Sequence record: DRR723986_6706
Length of the DNA: 33,512 nt
Reading direction: 5' to 3' (one strand)
Below the pieces are notes generated by a model. The model was not told the origin of the DNA. It was given only the letters and a program-made list of their open reading frames with translations, and ran no database searches. This document shows, one piece after another, positions 145 through 33,004 of the stretch; position 1 is the first letter of the stretch; every line of letters starts with the position of its first letter. A program made the translations under genes and the position numbers.

Positions 145-1626
145 TTAATCGGTAACGACGGTAATAACCTTTTCTTCAGTGTAAGCCATTACTCCAGATA
201 AGCCGCACTCACGACCACTGCCACTCTGCTTAACGCCGCCCCACGGCAGCCTCGCATCAATGGGGGCCCAACAGTTAACCCCTACTGCTCCAGCCTTAAT
301 TTTCTTAGCCATTCGATGAGCACGCTTTACATCAGAGGTCCACACGGTAGCGCCTAAGCCGTATACCGTCCCATTGGCAATTTCTACAGCATCCTGTTCG
401 TCATCAAAAGGAATGACGGTAGCCACTGGGCCGAAAATTTCTTGTTGCGCGATAGCCATGTCATTGGTGGCCGCAGCAAAAACTGTTGGACGAACAAACC
501 AACCCTTCTCGTACGGACACTCACCACCCGCCAGCAGTGACGCCCCTGCCGCGACGCCCTCGCGGATATAGTAGTTAACTCTATCTAGCTGTGCTTTTTT
601 GCACACAGGCCCCATTTGGACGCCTTCCTCCTGGGGGTTACCAACGACAATATTGCTGGCCACGTCAGCAAGCTTCTGCGCAAACTCATCTGCGATATCT
701 CGCTGCACTAGTATTCGAGACCCTGCTGCACATATTTGCCCCTGATTAAAAAAGATCCCCATCGCGCATCCAGCCAGCGCCTCATCCTGATCTGCATCAG
801 AAAATACAACTTGCGGGCTTTTTCCGCCAAGCTCTAAAGATACTCGCTTGAAGTCTTTTGCGGCTTCAGTCTGAATATGCTGACCCACAGCCGGACTACC
901 TGTAAACGTGATCTTGTCTACACCAGGGTGACGTACGAGGGCATTGCCAATGACTGAGCCAGACCCCGTGACGACATTGACCACGCCATCGGGAATTCCG
1001 GCTTCCTTAGCAAGCTTAGCCAAATGTAACGCCGACATCGGGGTTTCTTCTGAAGGCTTGATCACCACAGTACACCCAGCCGCCAATAAAGGAGCGACTT
1101 TCCAGCATGTGATCATGAAAGGCGTATTCCAGGGCGTAATCGCGGCCACCACGCCCACAGGCTCATTTACCGTATAAGACAATGTAGCCCGACCAAGATA
1201 ACCCGGAGTGGGAATTGTCCGCCCCTCGATCTTGTCAGCCCAACCTGCCGAGGTCCGGATGGTTTGGATAGCATTGGGCAGATCCAGGATTCGCGGCTCC
1301 ATGGGAACCCGACCAATACAAACGGCATCCATATCTGCAATCAAGTCAGCATCGCGCTCCACGAGGTCTGCCAGCTTGTTTATCAGGCATCCGCGCTGAT
1401 AGCCGCTAAGACCGGACCAGACACCATTATCGAACTCTGATCTCGCCGCAGACACCGCGGCATTAACCTCGGCAACACCCCCAAATGAATAGCTTGCCAA
1501 CACGGTTTCATCGACGGGGTTTATCAACTCCCCCCGGGCACCATCTGAGGACTCGACCTCTATCCCATTGATAAAATGGAACATTTCTGTAGGCAACAGG
1601 CCAGCTTCTGACTGTAATTTCGTCAC
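145..1626 (-). CDS. NAD(P)-dependent aldehyde dehydrogenase, possibly phenylacetaldehyde/aromatic aldehyde dehydrogenase
   Basis: 493 aa; PWNxP, FTGS, catalytic LELGGKSP and FFNQGQICAAGSR, EIFGPV; GGAG RBS before GTG. Substrate inferred from paa context only. Confidence 0.9.
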   Translation of the reverse strand: MTKLQSEAGLLPTEMFHFINGIEVESSDGARGELINPVDETVLASYSFGGVAEVNAAVSAARSEFDNGVWSGLSGYQRGCLINKLADLVERDADLIADMDAVCIGRVPMEPRILDLPNAIQTIRTSAGWADKIEGRTIPTPGYLGRATLSYTVNEPVGVVAAITPWNTPFMITCWKVAPLLAAGCTVVIKPSEETPMSALHLAKLAKEAGIPDGVVNVVTGSGSVIGNALVRHPGVDKITFTGSPAVGQHIQTEAAKDFKRVSLELGGKSPQVVFSDADQDEALAGCAMGIFFNQGQICAAGSRILVQRDIADEFAQKLADVASNIVVGNPQEEGVQMGPVCKKAQLDRVNYYIREGVAAGASLLAGGECPYEKGWFVRPTVFAAATNDMAIAQQEIFGPVATVIPFDDEQDAVEIANGTVYGLGATVWTSDVKRAHRMAKKIKAGAVGVNCWAPIDARLPWGGVKQSGSGRECGLSGVMAYTEEKVITVVTD

Positions 1627-1698
1627 TATGTAATCTCCGCTTTTTATTCGCGATATCTCGTCTTTTCAGCATTTCACCCGAATTTGAGTGACACAACG

Positions 1699-1733
1699 TA
1701 CCGACATGTGCAGAGACAGTGACATTTTGTGCA
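1699..1733 (-). promoter_or_regulatory. Tandem TGCACA-headed direct repeats 21 bp apart, AraC/XylS-type activator site
   Basis: Minus strand TGCACAAAATGTCA (1733-1720) and TGCACATGTCGGTA (1712-1699); same arrangement upstream of paaK. Confidence 0.6.
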
Positions 1734-1748
1734 ATTGCCTGCCCGACC

Positions 1749-2063
1749 TTACAGGCTAACAACCTCGCTAAACTGCATGCTTGGCATAATATTCGTGTAA
1801 TTCTTTATATCCCGAATAATTGCCTTCTGTGCCACAGAAAACCTTTCGTTAAAATCATCGACACTGGTAACGTACAATTGGACCGCAGCGACAACTTCAG
1901 CCTGCTGTTCCGACTTCGCTCCGAACATGCCTTTATCAATCTCGCAACGCACACAGACATCCCCAAGAACCTCTTTCACCATCGGAATATGCGTTGACAA
2001 GTAGTAGTCATGATCAAAGCAACCATCGTCAGATCTGAAGTAGCTGATACTTACCTTTATCAT
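1749..2063 (-). CDS. EthD-family protein
   Basis: MIKVSISY...FDHDYYLSTHIPMVKE...DIKNYTNIMP matches the EthD pattern; start set at ATG 2063, just after the upstream stop. Confidence 0.8.
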   Translation of the reverse strand: MIKVSISYFRSDDGCFDHDYYLSTHIPMVKEVLGDVCVRCEIDKGMFGAKSEQQAEVVAAVQLYVTSVDDFNERFSVAQKAIIRDIKNYTNIMPSMQFSEVVSL

Positions 2064-2064
2064 T

Positions 2065-3249
2065 TTATCTCTCTGTTTTATTAAGGAATTGTGTGTTTTC
2101 CAGGATAATCGCAATACCATGTCCACTGTTTGAGGACGCAGCGCACAAAGCGTATCGAAGGTTTTTTGATTGCATACTGTTTATTGCAGTGACGACCAGC
2201 CTCGCGGATGAGGCTCCCGTTGCCTCACCAATGGCTAGGTCGCCCCCGCTACCATTTAGCTTCGCCAGTCCCAATGGAACGCCTAGGTCCTTCATTACAC
2301 TTATCGCCTCCACCGCACAAACCTCTCCAACCTCGATCACATCAAGGTCCTCGGGCTTGAGACCAGTTTCAGCAAATACTTTTCTGATAGCCGGGATACA
2401 ATATGGCGAATCAGCCGCCAGTGGACTTTCTACTACGGCGTGGGCCAGAACCCTCGCTCTCGCTCGCAAACCCAATTCTTCCACACCGGACATAGACGCC
2501 ACCAGCAGGCAACACGAGCCATCAACCGTCGGCGCGAACCCCTCATGCAATGACGGATGGATATCAACCAAACTGTCGACAAACCTGCGGCCATGCTCAC
2601 GCAGCCGCAAGCCATCAAGCTCATCTTCACTAAAATAGCCTCCACCCAGCTTCTGATCATTGCTAATCAGCATACACTCACGATCAAAGAATCCCCGTTG
2701 ACGCGCAGCCATCGTCCGTCCGTAAGCGGCTACGATATACGAGTTAATATTTTCATTTGATATGGCGTAGTTTTTCGCCAACATTGATCTGCGCGCAGCC
2801 TTCTCCGACAGCCTCGTGAACTTGAATTCCCCTTCTGAGCCGCTGTAATCGGCATTAGTGGCAGGCCCTCTCGCCTTAGAACTTGAGCTCACGCCGATAA
2901 CCACTGAAAGATTTGACGCGCCAGTACCTATGTCGCCGGCTGCCCGTTCGATGGCAGCCATACCCGTACAGTGCAACCAACCTAACGGCGTTACGCTTAC
3001 ATTGCGCTCGATTGAGGTCTTGTCAACGCAAACGTCGACAAACTTCTTTGCGCCCTCTAACGTGCATAAATTTTTATTATTGGAGCCCACATACAGACGA
3101 TCCACTCGACGCCAGTCAAGCTTTGGATTCCTTTTGACCATATCCGCCAACGGCAATGATGCAAGCTGAGCAGTCGAGTATCGCTCAAGGTAGCTATTTC
3201 GGATGGCAAAAGGTGTACGCACGGCTCCACATATGAATGCAGAGCTCAT
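2065..3249 (-). CDS. Thiolase-fold protein, PaaJ/PcaF-like, with catalytic residues lost
   Basis: AFICGAVRTPF, DGSCCLLVAS, LDVIEV, GASSARLVVTA and RYALC align with the PaaJ at 16762; active-site motifs are substituted. Confidence 0.75.
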   Translation of the reverse strand: MSSAFICGAVRTPFAIRNSYLERYSTAQLASLPLADMVKRNPKLDWRRVDRLYVGSNNKNLCTLEGAKKFVDVCVDKTSIERNVSVTPLGWLHCTGMAAIERAAGDIGTGASNLSVVIGVSSSSKARGPATNADYSGSEGEFKFTRLSEKAARRSMLAKNYAISNENINSYIVAAYGRTMAARQRGFFDRECMLISNDQKLGGGYFSEDELDGLRLREHGRRFVDSLVDIHPSLHEGFAPTVDGSCCLLVASMSGVEELGLRARARVLAHAVVESPLAADSPYCIPAIRKVFAETGLKPEDLDVIEVGEVCAVEAISVMKDLGVPLGLAKLNGSGGDLAIGEATGASSARLVVTAINSMQSKNLRYALCAASSNSGHGIAIILENTQFLNKTER

Positions 3250-3259
3250 ATCATTATTA

Positions 3260-4570
3260 CTACCGATAGTCCTTGACGCGTTTTGCCTTCCCTTCTGAGC
3301 GCGCTAAGCCTTCACCCTCGACCAGCTTCACCTTGATAGAGATCCCCACATAGGTCTTAACCAGATGCTTGAGCCGACTGACGATCTCTTCTCTAGCTTG
3401 CGCTCCCAACTCCTGATACTCCGGATTAAGCTCAACCGAGACCGTTACAACATCTAGATTTCCGTCTTTAGAAACTTCGATGAAGTAAATCGGCGCCAAC
3501 TCCGAGACCTTTAGCAGCAACTCTTCTATCTGAGTGGGAAACACATTGACGCCACGTATGATAAGCATGTCATCCGAGCGACCAGTAATCTTGCCGATGC
3601 GTCTCATGCCCCGAGAAGTAGGCGGCAGCAACTTGGTCAAATCGCGAGTTCGATAGCGTATAACGGGAAAGGCCTCCTTCGTCAGGGAGGTGAACACCAA
3701 CTCCCCGTCTTCCCCATCTGGCAAGACCTCTCCCGTCACAGGGTCAATGATTTCGGGAAGAAAATGATCTTCCCAGATCACCGGCCCGTCCTTACTTTCG
3801 ACGCATTCGCTTGCAACGCCCGGCCCCATGACTTCAGAAAGACCATATATATCTACAGCGTCGATACCCGCTCGCTCTTCAATTTCTTCCCGCATCGCAT
3901 TTGTCCATGGCTCTGCGCCAAAGATGCCGATCTCCAAGCTCGTTGACCTAGGATCGATACCCTGCCGCTCAAACTCTTCTATCAGGTTCAGCATATAAGA
4001 AGGGGTAACCATGATGATGCGGGGCTTAAAGTCCTGAATAAGCTGCACCTGCTTTTCAGTCTGCCCACCAGACATTGGAACCACTGTGCACCCGAGACGC
4101 TCTGCACCATAGTGAGCGCCCATCCCGCCAGTAAACAGGCCGTAACCATAGGCATTATGGAGAATATCTCCCGGACGCCCACCCGCCGCTCTGATACTTC
4201 TGGCAACCAAATTCGCCCAGTTATCAATATCCGCCTGGGTATAACCGACAACTGTGGGCTTACCCGTCGTCCCGCTAGACGCATGGATTCTGGCCACCTT
4301 TTCTCGCGGAACAGCGAACAGGCCAAATGGATAATTGTCTCGTAGATCCTGCTTCCCCAAAAATGGGAATTTATTCAGATCTGACAAAGAGTTAAGATCA
4401 TCAGGAGTGACGCCGGCTTCGTCAAACTTCTTCTTGTAGAACGGTACGTTTTTATAGGCGTTTTCTAATGTATTTTTAAGTCGTTCTAGCTGAAGAGCCG
4501 AAATTTCTTCTCTACTAGCCATCTCGATCGGTTCCAACTCGGGCTTGGAACTATTGGATAGGGTAGGCAT
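3260..4570 (-). CDS. paaK: Phenylacetate-CoA ligase
   Basis: 436 aa; HASSGTTGKPT P-loop, YGYGLFTGG, DIYGLSE, RYRTRD, RGVNVFP; GGAGG RBS. Confidence 0.95.
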   Translation of the reverse strand: MPTLSNSSKPELEPIEMASREEISALQLERLKNTLENAYKNVPFYKKKFDEAGVTPDDLNSLSDLNKFPFLGKQDLRDNYPFGLFAVPREKVARIHASSGTTGKPTVVGYTQADIDNWANLVARSIRAAGGRPGDILHNAYGYGLFTGGMGAHYGAERLGCTVVPMSGGQTEKQVQLIQDFKPRIIMVTPSYMLNLIEEFERQGIDPRSTSLEIGIFGAEPWTNAMREEIEERAGIDAVDIYGLSEVMGPGVASECVESKDGPVIWEDHFLPEIIDPVTGEVLPDGEDGELVFTSLTKEAFPVIRYRTRDLTKLLPPTSRGMRRIGKITGRSDDMLIIRGVNVFPTQIEELLLKVSELAPIYFIEVSKDGNLDVVTVSVELNPEYQELGAQAREEIVSRLKHLVKTYVGISIKVKLVEGEGLARSEGKAKRVKDYR

Positions 4571-25425: not shown

Positions 25426-26600
<1,175 letters not shown>

Positions 26601-27590: not shown

Positions 27591-27691
27591 CGATTTGTAG
27601 GGCTTCGAGCAGGGCGAAGCTTCAACCTAACCTACCTCTACCGTTTGGCATGATAGCGCGGAATGGTCACAACAAAGCCTCCGCGGTATCG

Positions 27692-27807
27692 CATCTTGCT
27701 TCTGCCATTACCGCTTGGCTCATTACTTATACATGCTATATTCACCCAACCCGTCCCTCACGGGCTAAGCTGGCTTAGCAAGACATCCAAGCGCGCGAAT
27801 ATAAAAG
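27692..27807 (+). repeat. Copy B of the ~115-bp promoter/leader repeat, directly upstream of the HEPN gene
   Basis: TTGGCT-N16-TATATT with extended -10 TG; hairpins CCCGT-CCCTC-ACGGG and GCTAAG-CTGG-CTTAGC; ends in the RBS. Confidence 0.85.
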
Positions 27808-27812
27808 GACTG

Positions 27813-28463
27813 ATGATGCATGATGCACTGAAAGCAAGACACAGAGCAGTACGCGACACCTTCCCCACGAACCTAAACCTACGCATTCATCGATCCCTCA
27901 GCTGGCTAAAGGCCTCTGAATCAACAGACGATGTGGATAGCCGCTTTATTTTTCTGTGGATTGCTTTCAATGCAGCCTATGCAGTAGAGATCGATGACCG
28001 ATACCGAACCGCAGAGCAGGAAGCCTTCAAAGAGTTTATCGGCAAGCTCTGCGACTTAGATGCAGATAAAAAATTAGAAAAGCTGGTCTGGGAGGCATTC
28101 CCCAAAGCGATACGCGGACTTCTCAATAACCGCTTTGTGTTTGCTCGATTTTGGGACTATCAAAACGGGAAAATGGAAGAAAGCGATTGGAAGGATGCCT
28201 TTTCCGCTGCCAACGCGGCGGCGCATAAAGCAGTAGGTCAACGAGAAGTACAAAAGGTCATCGGTATCGTATTAAGTCGCATCTACACCCTTCGAAACCA
28301 AATCGTCCATGGCGGCGCCACTTTCGGAGGGCAAGTTAATCGTGAGCAGCTCAAAGACTGCACGAACTTCCTGAGCCACCTCATTCCTACCATCATTGAA
28401 ATTATGCTCGACTCACCTGACACGCTGTGGGGCGAGGCCTGTTATCCGGTTGTAGAGGTCTAA
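27813..28463 (+). CDS. HEPN-domain protein (putative RNase)
   Basis: R-x4-H motif RNQIVHGG and FIFLWIAFNA helix; start set at ATG 27813 after AAAAGGA. Confidence 0.75.
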   Translation: MMHDALKARHRAVRDTFPTNLNLRIHRSLSWLKASESTDDVDSRFIFLWIAFNAAYAVEIDDRYRTAEQEAFKEFIGKLCDLDADKKLEKLVWEAFPKAIRGLLNNRFVFARFWDYQNGKMEESDWKDAFSAANAAAHKAVGQREVQKVIGIVLSRIYTLRNQIVHGGATFGGQVNREQLKDCTNFLSHLIPTIIEIMLDSPDTLWGEACYPVVEV

Positions 28464-28464
28464 G

Positions 28465-29538
28465 ATGGATACAGACACCTCTTTGGCACTGATAGAGAAA
28501 GCTCGGGGCTGCCTTCTGGCCGGCGCGGTAGGCGATGCCCTCGGCGCACCAGTTGAGTTTATGTCAATCGACGAGATTGTAAGGCAGTTCGGCTCGAGTG
28601 GAATCACTGGCTATGCGCCAGCATATGATGGCACTGGAAAGATCACGGACGACACGCAGATGACGCTGTTCACCGCGGAGGGCCTTATTCGCGCGTCGGT
28701 TCGAGGGCAACGCAAAGGCATTTGTCACTTCCCTAGCGTAGTCGCTCATGCCTATCAGCGCTGGCTGCTGACACAGGGCCACTCGAACCCTGAGATATCT
28801 GCGGCTACTGACGGCTGGCTCTTCGGCATAAACGAACTCCACTCTCAACGGGCCCCCGGGATTACCTGCCTAACCGCACTGGAATCGATGTCGTATTTTG
28901 GGGAAGCTGCTATCAACGACTCCAAAGGGTGCGGTGGCGTCATGCGGGTAGCGCCTGTCGCATTCATAGGCGCCGCAACAGGAGATAACACCAACGCCAC
29001 CAGCGCCTTTGAAACAGCCGTCGAGATCTGTGCTTTGACGCATGGCCACCCCACCGGCCAACTTGCTGGCGGTTACTTTGCTGCATTGCTGACTTTGCTA
29101 AGTAACGGTGAACAACTCCTTCCCGCTGCCATTAAATGCATCGATATACTGAGAAACCACGAAAACCACTCTGAAGTCCTAACACACATTGAGCGAGCAA
29201 TTGAAAAGTCTACAGCTAGCCCGAACTGTCGAAACACACTGACAGAGCTGGGCGAAGGGTGGGTAGCCGAAGAAGCGCTAGCGATGAGCCTGTACTGCGC
29301 TTTATCGAGCGATAATCTTAAAGACGCACTGATTCTTGCGGTGAATCACTCTGGAGACAGCGACTCAACAGGAGCAATTACCGGAAACATCGTAGGCTTG
29401 ATGGCCGGAGAGCGAGCTATACCTGCGGAATGGCTTGAAACGCTAGAACTGAAGAACGTGATCACCGAGGTCGCAGAGGATTTACTTACAGCCGACAACG
29501 GGACAGACTCCTGGTGGGCGAGGTATCCAGGCCACTAA
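28465..29538 (+). CDS. ADP-ribosylglycohydrolase (DraG/ARH family)
   Basis: GAVGDALGAPVEF, ITDDTQM, SKGCGGVMR, THGHP, GDSDSTGAITG. Confidence 0.92.
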   Translation: MDTDTSLALIEKARGCLLAGAVGDALGAPVEFMSIDEIVRQFGSSGITGYAPAYDGTGKITDDTQMTLFTAEGLIRASVRGQRKGICHFPSVVAHAYQRWLLTQGHSNPEISAATDGWLFGINELHSQRAPGITCLTALESMSYFGEAAINDSKGCGGVMRVAPVAFIGAATGDNTNATSAFETAVEICALTHGHPTGQLAGGYFAALLTLLSNGEQLLPAAIKCIDILRNHENHSEVLTHIERAIEKSTASPNCRNTLTELGEGWVAEEALAMSLYCALSSDNLKDALILAVNHSGDSDSTGAITGNIVGLMAGERAIPAEWLETLELKNVITEVAEDLLTADNGTDSWWARYPGH

Positions 29539-30085: not shown

Positions 30086-30200
30086 CTAATCCGCTGTTTC
30101 TAATGACTTGACTAAACGTTTCCCTTTTGGGGTCAGGTAGTACTCAATCGGTAGCTTTCCTGGCCCCCTAGCCACATGCTTATCTTTCACAACTCTACGC
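30086..30200 (-). pseudogene. 3' half of a winged-helix gene split by IS66
   Basis: Continues in frame from 32815-33004 across the TSD: VVKDKHVARGPGKLPIEYYLTPKGKRLVKSLETAD-stop. Confidence 0.8.
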
Positions 30201-30251
30201 GTAACCGTCCGGTGAACTCACCTGCTATTTCGTGCGCTCATCCGCAATCAT

Positions 30252-30278
30252 AGTGTCCACTTATTTTAAGTGGACACT
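30252..30278. promoter_or_regulatory. Perfect 12-bp inverted repeat just upstream of IS66 tnpA
   Basis: AGTGTCCACTTA-TTT-TAAGTGGACACT. Confidence 0.7.
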
Positions 30279-30283
30279 TAGCT

Positions 30284-30643
30284 ATGGATACACAAGGGTT
30301 ACTTCCTCCCCCGGTTAAGCGGCATCGCCGCCGTCACTCCCGGCAGTTTAAGCAACAGGTCGTAACAGCCAGCTTCGTGCCCGGCGCCTCGATAGCCGGT
30401 GTCGCTCGCGAGTTCGAGATCAATGCCAACCTGGTTCATAACTGGCGCAAGCAGTTGGGGCAGGCTGCTCCGGAGAACACCGACTTCATTAGAGTGGCAC
30501 CGCTATCAATGGGATCTGATAAAGGGGTCACCGCAGTAGCGGAAACACTGCGGGTGGAGATAGCCAGCGCCATGGGCACAGTGACACTCCACTGGCCCAT
30601 GGCGCGTTTGGATCATCTTGCGGCCTGGCTCAAATCCTCATGA
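30284..30643 (+). CDS. tnpA: IS66 accessory protein TnpA (HTH)
   Basis: RRRHSRQFKQQVV...PGASIAGVAREFEINANLVHNWR. Confidence 0.9.
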   Translation: MDTQGLLPPPVKRHRRRHSRQFKQQVVTASFVPGASIAGVAREFEINANLVHNWRKQLGQAAPENTDFIRVAPLSMGSDKGVTAVAETLRVEIASAMGTVTLHWPMARLDHLAAWLKSS

Positions 30644-30975
30644 TCCGCATTGATGAGATCTGGTTAGCCCGTGAGCCCCTGGATATGCGCGCCGGGCCGG
30701 ATACCACGCTGGCACGTGTGGTGCAGAGCTTTGGCGAAGCCCGGCCCCACTGCGCCTACCTCTTTGCCAACAAGCGCGCCAACCGGATGAAGGTGTTGGT
30801 GCACGATGGCTTTGGCCTTTGGCTAGCGGCGCGTCGATTACACCGCGGCAAGTTTATCTGGAGCAATCTGCGCGAAGGGGGCGCGGTTGCCTTGGATGAG
30901 GAGCAGTTCCGGGCGCTGATCACCGGCTTGCCCTGGCAGCGCGCCGGTGGCGCGGCAACCATCTCGGTACTGTAA
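30640..30975 (+). CDS. tnpB: IS66 accessory protein TnpB
   Basis: PLDMRAG, LFANKRANRMKVLVHDGFGLWLAARRLHRGKF; ATGA overlap with tnpA. Confidence 0.93.
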   Translation: MIRIDEIWLAREPLDMRAGPDTTLARVVQSFGEARPHCAYLFANKRANRMKVLVHDGFGLWLAARRLHRGKFIWSNLREGGAVALDEEQFRALITGLPWQRAGGAATISVL

Positions 30976-31076
30976 ATCCCGTTAGGTATGCTGCGCTCGC
31001 GCAGCATAGTTACCCACCTTAGTCCATTTACAGAATCGTCATCGCAGGCGGCGCCACGTTCTGGCAACATCGCTGT

Positions 31077-32627
31077 ATGACTCAGCTTAAGCCTGCCGAC
31101 CTCCAACACCTCACTCCTGAACAGCTTCGGGCAATGGTGCTGCAACTGCAGGCAAACAATGATCAGCTTGTGTCTGCTAACAATGAGCTAGCATCGGCCA
31201 ACACCACGCTCTCTACCCACAACGACAAACTCACCCACGAGTTGGCCCTGCTGCGCCGACATCGCTTTGGCAAGCGCAGCGAAGGGATGGACAAGCATCA
31301 GCTGGCCTTGCTGGATGCGCTGGTGGATGAAGACATCGCCGCCATTGAGGCTGAGCTGGAAGCCCTCTCGCCAAAGGCCGCTGAGCAACGCGTGCGCAAA
31401 CGGGCCAAGCGCCAGCCGCTGCCCAAAGACCTTCCTCGCACCGAGATCCATCATGAGCCGGAAAACACCAACTGTTCCTGCGGCTGCGCCCTGACCCGCA
31501 TTGGTGAAGACGTCAGCGAGAAGCTGGATTACCAGCCCGGCATCTTTAGCGTCGAGCGTCATATCCGGGGCAAGTGGTGCTGCCGGGACTGCGACAGCCT
31601 GGTGCAGGCGCCGGTAGCCCCTCATATTATTGATAAAGGCATCCCCACCACCAATTTGCTGGCCCAGGTACTGATCAGCAAATACGCTGACCACCTGCCA
31701 CTGCACCGGCAGGCGCAGCAGTTTGCCCGGGCGGGCGTCAGTATCCCGCGCTCCACCCTGGCAGATTGGGTAGGCCGTTGTGGTGTAGAGCTGCAGCCCT
31801 TGATCGACGCTTTACGAGAGACCCTGCTCAAAGAAGCCGTCTTGCACGCCGATGAAACCCCGGTGGCGATGCTGGCGCCGGGGAAGAAGCAGACACATAA
31901 GGCCTATGTTTGGGCCTATGCCTCAACCCGGTACTCGGCCATCCAGGGCGTGGTCTATGACTTCCAGCCCGGCCGTGCCGGGCAGGCAGCGAGAGACTTC
32001 CTGGCCGAGTGGCAAGGCAAGTTGGTCTGCGATGACTATGCTGGCTACAAGGCTGGCTTTGCCAATGGCATCAGCGAAGTCGGTTGCTGGGCCCATGCAA
32101 GGCGCAAGTTCCATGATTTGCATGTGGCCAATAAGAGCCAGATTGCTGGGCAGGCGCTGAATTATATCCAAGACCTGTATCGGATTGAGCGGGAGCTGGC
32201 TGAACTGACGCCGCAAGCGCGACAAGTCCAGCGGCAAGAACGATCAAAACCGATCACCGACCAATTGCATCACTGGCTCATTGCCAAACGACAGCAGGTG
32301 CCCGATGGCAGCGGCACCGCCAAGGCCATCAACTACAGCGTAAAACGCTGGGAGGCCTTAACCCGTTATCTCGATGACGGCGCCATCCCCATCGACAACA
32401 ACTGGGTGGAGAATCAAATCCGGCCTTGGGCGCTCGGGCGTTCAAACTGGTTGTTTGCGGGATCACTGCGCAGTGGACAGCGGGCGGCAAATATCATGAC
32501 CCTGGTCCAGTCCGCGAAGATCAACGACCTCAATCCGCAGGCCTATTTGAAAGACATTATGGAGAGGCTGCCGACCCAGAAGGCATCGAGAATCGGTGAG
32601 CTGCTACCCCACAATTGGAAGCCCTGA
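31077..32627 (+). CDS. tnpC: IS66 DDE transposase TnpC
   Basis: FGKRSE, Zn finger (CSCG...CRDC), KYADHLPL, HADETP, CDDYAGY, CWAHARRKF, IDNNWVENQIR. Confidence 0.96.
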   Translation: MTQLKPADLQHLTPEQLRAMVLQLQANNDQLVSANNELASANTTLSTHNDKLTHELALLRRHRFGKRSEGMDKHQLALLDALVDEDIAAIEAELEALSPKAAEQRVRKRAKRQPLPKDLPRTEIHHEPENTNCSCGCALTRIGEDVSEKLDYQPGIFSVERHIRGKWCCRDCDSLVQAPVAPHIIDKGIPTTNLLAQVLISKYADHLPLHRQAQQFARAGVSIPRSTLADWVGRCGVELQPLIDALRETLLKEAVLHADETPVAMLAPGKKQTHKAYVWAYASTRYSAIQGVVYDFQPGRAGQAARDFLAEWQGKLVCDDYAGYKAGFANGISEVGCWAHARRKFHDLHVANKSQIAGQALNYIQDLYRIERELAELTPQARQVQRQERSKPITDQLHHWLIAKRQQVPDGSGTAKAINYSVKRWEALTRYLDDGAIPIDNNWVENQIRPWALGRSNWLFAGSLRSGQRAANIMTLVQSAKINDLNPQAYLKDIMERLPTQKASRIGELLPHNWKP

Positions 32628-32643
32628 TCACCGACAAAAGCAG

Positions 32644-32746
32644 AATAAAAATAGCAGGAAGGCCGGCCATCATGGCCATACCCACCTTCCGTAGTGTCCT
32701 CTCATCCTGAGAACGCCTCCCTGCAATAAGCACATCCTGTGCCTAC
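32644..32746 (-). ncRNA. Candidate CsrA/RsmA-binding sRNA (CsrB/RsmX/Y/Z-like) inside IS66
   Basis: Hairpins GUAGGCAC-AGGAU-GUGCUUAU, UGC-AGGGAG-GCG, UUCUC-AGGAU-GAGAG, CACU-ACGGAA-GGUG, a further GGACA, then GGCC-AUGAU-GGCC and a U-rich tail. Confidence 0.7.
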
Positions 32747-32751
32747 CGTGA

Positions 32752-32779
32752 ACTATAGATACACGAATCAAATTTGCAA
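32752..32779 (-). promoter_or_regulatory. Sigma70-like promoter for the candidate sRNA
   Basis: Minus strand TTGCAA (32779-32774)-N16-TATAGT (32757-32752), 5 nt before the first hairpin. Confidence 0.6.
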
Positions 32780-32814
32780 ACTTGAATTAAGTATGGGGTT
32801 CACCGGACGGTTAC

Positions 32815-33004
32815 CTCTACGCGACATAAGTTCAGAATGTCGACGAACGACTTTATTCAAAGAGCCCCGATCAACACCCAGCTCGTCCAGCATGACTTGA
32901 GGCCGGCGAGGTGTCTTCAAAAACAGCAATATCTTTAGCGCTTGTGGTGTCAGATTATTCCTCAGCATAACCCTGACCACATGCTCAGCGAAATGTGTAC
33001 TCAT
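32815..33004 (-). pseudogene. 5' half of a winged-helix gene split by IS66
   Basis: MSTHFAEHVVRVMLRNNLTPQALKILLFLK...DRGSLNKVVRRHSELMSRR up to the TSD. Confidence 0.75.

Follow-up and report, generated by a model that had tools for sequence, protein, structure and literature searches.

The window analyzed here, a stretch of 33,512 nt from sequence record DRR723986_6706, carries within part of its last 3.3 kb a complete insertion sequence of the IS66 family (Table 1). The genes follow the order tnpA-tnpB-tnpC with a DDE transposase encoded by tnpC, the terminal inverted repeats begin with GTAA (in full GTAACCGTCCGGTGAAC), and the insertion is flanked by an 8-bp target duplication, as is typical of this family. 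Next to its DDE domain, the tnpC product was found by Pfam to contain zinc-finger, leucine-zipper and C-terminal domains. The site of insertion is an open reading frame that starts at position 33004 on the minus strand (32815-33004) and reads into the element; its remaining N-terminal piece of 63 residues had no Pfam match. A second transposase gene, IS3-like and with an rve integrase core, is located near the IS66 element (regions 25426-26265 and 27663-29538). Beside it lies a weak match to the RiboL-PSP HEPN domain, followed by an ADP-ribosylglycohydrolase gene, and this whole region, which looks like a variable island, is positioned directly downstream of phenylacetate-pathway genes including PaaX. 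The window probably originates from a Zhongshania-like member of the Spongiibacteraceae, since a public contig of Zhongshania aquatica and one genome of the genus share a stretch of 3017 nt without any difference and since the closest IS66 relatives of the element come from the same species.

Table 1. Coordinates of the IS66 element and of the predicted small RNA gene behind tnpC, with the evidence for each feature.
Feature	Position	Strand	Evidence or remark
Complete IS66-family element, 2614 bp	30201-32814	+	Terminal inverted repeats match over about 17 nt
Target-site duplication, left copy, 8 bp CTCTACGC	30193-30200		Read directly from the sequence
Target-site duplication, right copy, 8 bp CTCTACGC	32815-32822		Read directly from the sequence
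tnpA, helix-turn-helix protein	30284-30643	+	Pfam HTH_Tnp_1, E = 5e-10
tnpB, IS66 Orf2-like	30640-30975	+	Pfam TnpB_IS66, E = 3.8e-26
tnpC, DDE transposase	31077-32627	+	Pfam DDE_Tnp_IS66, E = 9.6e-106
Cargo module, about 160 bp, not in relatives of this IS66	32628-32787	-	Right-end comparison and RNA model
Right inverted repeat and inner flank	32788-32814	-	Aligns with right ends of relatives without the RNA
Sigma-70-like promoter	32752-32779	-	Promoter scan; both boxes conserved in the family
Predicted small RNA, about 100 nt, ends inferred	32644-32746	-	Fold, model hit of 102.6 bits, covariation
Hairpin 1, 5-bp stem, AGGAU loop	32729-32743	-	3 of 5 pairs compensatory; GGA in 17 of 18 copies
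Hairpin 2, AGGAU loop	32696-32714	-	3 of 5 pairs compensatory; GGA in 18 of 18 copies
Central GGA site ACGGAAG, unpaired or weakly closed	32686-32692	-	GGA in 17 of 18 copies
Hairpin 4, GGCC-AUGAU-GGCC, without GGA here	32665-32677	-	Single-sequence and consensus folds
Long closing helix, likely terminator	32652-32725	-	13 pairs, 5 with compensatory changes

Between the stop codon of tnpC (32627) and the right end of the element (32814) lie 187 bp, in agreement with the roughly 190 bp that an earlier, sequence-only reading of the window had placed there, inside the element as bounded by its target-site duplication. This interval was compared with 80 loci encoding relatives of the TnpC of the window at 61-80% identity. 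The right-end motif could be located in 45 of these loci, while the search pattern matched no end in the other 35. For 43 of the 45 located ends the distance from the tnpC stop amounts to 28-36 bp, the remaining two being found at +53 and +81, and in the closest relatives (78-80% identity) the stop codon passes directly into the inverted repeat. The element in the window therefore contains about 160 additional base pairs. A covariance model of the RNA described below matched none of the 80 related loci at E values up to 1, which supports the earlier proposal that this IS66 carries a self-contained small RNA gene. A blastn search of positions 32560-32830 against plasmids yielded no match. A chimeric right end, with the inner portion of its repeat derived from another IS66 lineage, was considered and dropped because relatives without the RNA have the same CCCCA motif and because the alignment scores were indecisive.

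The additional module is predicted to be a compact unit on the minus strand, consisting of a promoter, an RNA of about 100 nt and a terminator stem. The promoter motif TTGCAA-N16-TATAGT, already pointed out from the sequence, was found again, with the -35 box TTGCAA at 32779-32774 and the -10 box TATAGT at 32757-32752 separated by a spacer of 16 nt. Since 3 promoter-like sites were observed in 4 kb, as compared to 2.3 in shuffled sequences, this match is not significant on its own; both boxes are conserved across the members of the RNA family. The single-sequence fold of the RNA has a free energy of -46.6 kcal/mol (z = -3.46). From its 5′-end onward the RNA is laid out as an AGGAU hairpin, a closing stem that surrounds a second AGGAU hairpin, an open GGA and the GGCC-AUGAU-GGCC hairpin, and finally a run of U residues. 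The 5′-arm of the closing helix (32725-32714) contains the motif GGGAGG, its 3′-arm occupies 32663-32652, and the helix, which encloses hairpins 2 to 4, is directly followed by the U-run (32651-32644). It was not flagged by a simple terminator scan because its “loop” is branched. Regarding the placement of the GGA motifs, the sequence-only reading had assigned four of them to hairpin loops. This holds for the two AGGAU motifs, whereas in the consensus structure of the family AGGGAG is part of the 5′-arm of the closing stem and thus paired, and ACGGAA is located in the weakly closed central region. The further hairpin with an AUGAU loop described in that reading is real in both the single-sequence and the consensus fold, and in 3 of 18 copies its loop does contain a GGA.

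When 101 genomes surrounding the nearest genome were searched with the insert by blastn, nine of them gave matches, one being a spurious 19-mer. Eight copies were aligned with MAFFT, and on this plain alignment RNAalifold returned a consensus of 28 pairs. A covariance model built from the alignment (R1) and searched against 40 genomes of the taxonomic family detected the RNA in 13 genomes, all belonging to one genus (13 of its 28 genomes), and a second model (R2) found the same 13 of 28. When R2 was applied with stricter filters to 151 genomes sampled across the order, three contained the RNA, two of them from the genus and one (G165) from another family. Altogether 21 copies were collected with the covariance model, 18 of which are distinct. 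Among these 18, standard pairs occupy 94.5% of all pair cells, as compared to 34-55% when the partners are slid against each other, in an alignment whose fitting to the model biases it towards the structure; the same fold was obtained from the alignment made without such fitting. Compensatory double changes are present in 15 of the 28 pairs, and none of 500 shuffles reached the observed covariation values. The insert is thus a member of a real, conserved and structured RNA family. The indels within the family do not occur in multiples of three (alignment of 8 copies), which argues that the gene is non-coding. The copy in the other family of the order (L123, G165:C2:153248-153355) is more distant and has the same layout, i.e., a 5′ AGGAU hairpin followed by a branched domain with GGA-loop hairpins that is closed by a terminator stem, and suggests that the architecture of this RNA extends beyond the genus.

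The five GGA motifs reported earlier within about 50 nt are located at positions 10, 27, 40, 48, and 57 of the RNA. Five GGA were reached by 839 of 5000 dinucleotide shuffles and in 1.6% of the 103-nt and 0.12% of the 56-nt windows of this DNA. The density of GGA motifs alone is accordingly a weak signal and not significant against dinucleotide shuffles; the feature stands above chance because it is conserved and covaries across relatives. A neutral hitch-hiker or decaying relic without present function, or an accidental resemblance to a decoy, would be compatible with this unremarkable density and with the visible decay of two IS-linked copies, one of which has lost two GGA sites (L116) and the other of which has a degenerate inverted repeat (L099). 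Such a passenger would, however, hardly be expected to show compensatory changes in more than half of its pairs while keeping its loops, to be carried by three separate IS66 clades and to be present as identical copies at several sites, and we consider this explanation very improbable.

Four GGA sites are conserved in the family, two of them in AGGA pentaloops, one in the central open region and one in a paired position, the latter being the GGA of the 5′-arm of the closing stem that is kept in 18 of 18 copies. The copy that departs from this conservation is a decayed IS-linked relic. The comparison of related IS66 copies that had been suggested as a check for the GGA loops was carried out, and the loops were found to be kept while the stems covary. 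In both pentaloops, which are closed by C-G pairs, the GGA is fixed, whereas variation is seen at the fifth base of the loop and in the stems. A fixed GGA in hairpin loops with variable stems is the pattern expected of binding sites for CsrA, and a number of four sites lies at the low end for known Csr/Rsm decoys.

A scan against Rfam yielded no match at the gathering threshold, and the RNA is not a member of the RsmZ, RsmY or CsrB families. The near-matches obtained were RsmZ (RF00166) on the minus strand of the window over the full length of the model (18.3 bits, gathering threshold 44, E = 0.019), RsmY (RF00195) on one paralogue (21.3 bits, threshold 57, E = 0.15), and CsrB (RF00018) on another paralogue (20.1 bits, threshold 71, E = 0.05). 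These three families, which form one clan (CL00106), were the only ones for which sub-threshold matches were seen. In the four genomes that were searched for canonical CsrB, RsmZ and RsmY, none was found above threshold, and the weak RsmZ and RsmY matches elsewhere in these genomes turned out to be ordinary terminators at gene ends. The CsrA family (PF02599) was present above cut-off in four of four genomes searched. The nearest genome, which is not the genome of the window itself, contains three csrA-family genes above the Pfam cut-off on three different contigs (G001:C3:5960-6115, C5:208115-208270, and C1:152735-152899), and also a UvrY/GacA-like regulator that scores 269 bits, just under the NCBIfam cut-off of 280 bits. 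The former description of the RNA as similar to a CsrA/RsmA sponge is therefore upheld by the exclusive nature of the near-matches and by the csrA genes of the nearest genome, but is not matched by any score above an Rfam threshold.

We interpret the RNA as a mobile decoy of the Rsm/Csr type that is carried by IS66 as cargo, and assign a probability of roughly 0.6 to this reading. It might alternatively be a real small RNA with another role, either pairing with mRNAs, in which case the AGGA loops would act as seeds or Shine-Dalgarno mimics, or binding to another RNA-binding protein. Structure and loops are conserved in a manner that is also compatible with other ligands, only four GGA sites are present, the family is patchily distributed within the genus, and the regions upstream of its copies yielded no GacA box. 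On the other hand, the GGA is fixed in C-G-closed pentaloops while the stems vary, as is the case for CsrA sites, and all Rfam near-matches belong to Csr/Rsm families, so that a role other than that of a CsrA decoy appears unlikely.

A GacA/UvrY box upstream of the gene is usual for Csr/Rsm decoys, although it does not strictly define them. Using the consensus TGTAAG-N6-CTTACA, taken from general knowledge, no match with four or fewer mismatches was found in the 350 nt upstream of the gene in the window, and none with two or fewer mismatches within 350 nt upstream of the 18 copies. Matches with three to four mismatches occurred at the frequency expected by chance. The absence of such a box, which the sequence-only reading had stated for the short stretch up to the end of the element, thus extends to 350 nt in the window and to the other copies. 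Since only about 35 bp of the element are located upstream of the -35 box, the gene would have no fixed activator site; an upstream site of this kind could be provided only by the inverted repeat or by the DNA of the landing site. Judged from this arrangement, it is plausible that the IS-borne copy has escaped from GacA-type control.

Thirteen runs recorded as RNA, belonging to several studies, hold part of the stretch. Four of these were examined and consist of assembled contigs, which carry no information on strand, ends or level. In this assembled and strandless form, contigs of two studies cover 32300-32814, contigs of two other studies end at 32676 within a palindromic hairpin, and one contig of 94 nt spans 32647-32715 and then continues into adapter sequence. 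With regard to the mode of action of the proposed decoy, transcription of the RNA of about 100 nt would start at its own near-consensus promoter, proceed from the right end into the element in convergent orientation to tnpC, and end at the long stem and the U-run. Via its two AGGA loops and the open GGA, the RNA could bind about two dimers of the CsrA/RsmA of the host, and the titration of CsrA would relieve CsrA control of target mRNAs. As the gene would move together with its own promoter and without a fixed upstream activator site, each new copy of the element would add to the dose of the decoy. Transcription, CsrA binding, dose and host effect are all inferred here from the anatomy of the gene and its conservation.

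The right end of the element together with the RNA was found at five different flanks, namely in the window, in the nearest genome and in three metagenome contigs. Over all 2614 bp, the elements in two of the metagenome contigs show 100% identity. One of these is bounded by an 8-bp duplication of its own; the other, at 700-3313 of the metagenome contig L096, lacks a target-site duplication, which could be due to recombination between copies or to an assembly join. The identical element copies or right ends at distinct sites confirm that the RNA gene is mobile, as had been claimed. While the nearest genome contains one copy of the insertion sequence, other genomes contain several IS-borne copies of the RNA.

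In total, four IS66 lineages (A-D) hold the module directly behind the tnpC stop codon, in the same orientation and reading inward, with the promoter lying inward of the right repeat at a distance between a few bases and about 45 nt. Lineage A comprises the form found in the window, a relative with 86% TnpC identity that also has the module, and a copy in another genus that is cut by the end of its contig. The TnpC proteins of lineages B and C are 38-41% identical to that of the window and about 82% identical to each other. The elements of these two lineages have left and right repeats of their own that match, and occupy at least six distinct insertion sites in three genomes, in addition to two decayed relics. 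Lineage D, whose TnpC is 54% identical to that of lineage C, comes from a genome that belongs to a different family of the order and in which both RNA copies detected are IS-linked. Among the best 30 relatives of the lineage C TnpC, the RNA was seen only in lineage D; two close relatives are cut by contig ends, could not be judged and were left out of the TnpC tree. In this tree, obtained from a quick maximum-likelihood search with 38 rows and containing several long branches, the RNA-bearing elements form three well-supported clades with SH-aLRT values of 97, 99, and 100. Each of these clades is nested among relatives without the RNA, and the tree requires at least three changes of state, a count that, given the quick search and the long branches, has to be taken as a minimum and not as a history. 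At the DNA level, the RNA modules share 67-76% identity, whereas the transposases of their carriers share only about 40% of their residues, which implies that the module postdates the split of the lineages in at least some of them. At another locus (L138, G008:C35), the left inverted repeat of an IS66 shows a tandem duplication of its first 17 nt.

The position and orientation of the module, which are the same in all four lineages, would also be expected if it served the transposon itself, either by opposing or ending the transcription of tnpC (convergent transcription with a shared terminator) or by pairing of the RNA with the leader of tnpA. Directly upstream of the tnpA start, at 30252-30278, a hairpin with an 11-bp stem is located, which is the same in an IS66 relative without the RNA (L008). 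The RNA bases GGACACTA (32699-32692) are complementary to the 5′-arm of this hairpin (30251-30258). By a rough estimate, the chance of such an 8-nt match is about 0.1, and the complementary segment of the RNA is specific to the IS lineage of the window and not common to the other lineages. Moreover, most IS66 relatives manage without the module, members of the family occur at non-IS sites without IS66 genes nearby, and the conservation of the GGA sites would be left unexplained. A role restricted to the transposon is therefore rather improbable, and the reading as a mobile Rsm/Csr-type decoy is preferred.

The RNA family is found inside IS66 elements as well as at sites that are not linked to insertion sequences. 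A tblastn search with the three IS66 proteins of the window yielded no hit in 11 non-IS loci (L123, L124, and L125 left out). Four of the non-IS copies share an arrangement in which the RNA is located between genes for a UDP-glucose dehydrogenase and an NAD-epimerase, two more adjoin the epimerase gene, including the second copy of the nearest genome, and the others adjoin unrelated genes. A universal native locus beside the epimerase gene was ruled out, as the epimerase loci of four further genomes contained no RNA even with the filters switched off. The family is absent from 15 of the 28 genomes of the genus, and with this patchy occurrence the RNA does not qualify as a universal CsrA antagonist in this genus. 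Two other IS-borne copies share 85-89% identity with the RNA of the window, and a further group shares 72-76%. The chromosomal copy in the nearest genome shares only 67%, so the module of the window was not captured locally in recent times. At one non-IS locus (L100, G025:C16, around 1497-1900), the RNA copy and its upstream region are contained in a unit of about 290 bp flanked by a direct repeat (about 24 bp, core GGGGTCAGTGTAAAAACGCC), which hints that this unit arrived as an insertion.

Insertion sequences are usually viewed as carrying genes for transposition only, and the decoy RNAs of the Csr/Rsm systems as fixed chromosomal genes under the control of GacA. Similar to RsmX, RsmY and RsmZ of Pseudomonas and to CsrB and CsrC of enterobacteria, the RNA described here is predicted to be a small non-coding RNA with its own promoter and terminator and has repeated GGA motifs, some of them in short hairpin loops, and the nearest genome has csrA genes; its predicted length of about 100 nt resembles that of RsmX and RsmY. 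It differs from these RNAs in that it stays below all Rfam thresholds, has only four conserved GGA sites, consists of one 5′ hairpin followed by a branched domain that is closed by the terminator stem, has no detectable GacA/UvrY box, is carried by a transposon and is patchily distributed within the genus.

Genes for CsrA/RsmA proteins are described on plasmids, phages and integrative elements, examples being RsmQ of plasmid pQBR103 and CsrT of Legionella elements (PMC9928087; PMC7366521). Common to these cases and to the RNA proposed here is a component of the Csr/Rsm system on mobile DNA, along with the notion that post-transcriptional control of the host is tuned by such DNA. There the component is a protein encoded by large conjugative or viral elements, whereas here it would be the antagonist RNA on an insertion sequence of 2.6 kb. 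What is known are csrA protein genes on mobile DNA, and what appears to be new is a probable RNA of the Rsm/Csr type as cargo of IS66. Full-text searching of the literature, supplementary files aside, revealed no insertion sequence, and no IS66 in particular, with a Csr/Rsm-type RNA. RNAs encoded by insertion sequences include RNA-OUT of IS10, the 5′UTR RNA of IS200, the omega RNA of IS605 and the bridge RNA of IS110. RNAs of this kind, which act on their own element, are likewise non-coding and located within the insertion sequence near one end (PMC5435999; PMC11208160). Whereas such RNAs overlap the 5′-region of the transposase gene or guide the recombinase, and are confined to their own element family, the RNA of the window lies behind the 3′-end of tnpC, has chromosomal relatives and is absent from most IS66 elements. 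No antisense overlap with the translation start of the transposase, as in the case of RNA-OUT, was found, the RNA being located 3′ of tnpC and not overlapping it.

Taken further, IS66 elements may have gained the CsrA-decoy RNA at least three times or swapped it between lineages, spreading it across genera and shifting the Csr/Rsm state of their hosts by copy number and free of GacA control. We put this extended scenario forward as tentative and hold it to be possible, though doubtful. If it were true, the shift of the Csr/Rsm state could either benefit the host or lift a repression of the element by CsrA, and IS66 would represent the first known case of an insertion sequence with a decoy for a global regulator as cargo. 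The analysis defines a strongly covarying, structured RNA family that Rfam lacks, and the IS66 relatives with and without the module provide a natural on/off comparison that involves one RNA and one protein. A decoy within a transposon of 2.6 kb, present in separate lineages of IS66, would represent a very small and mobile means of resetting global post-transcriptional control, and its carriage would complement that of csrA protein genes by plasmids and phages.
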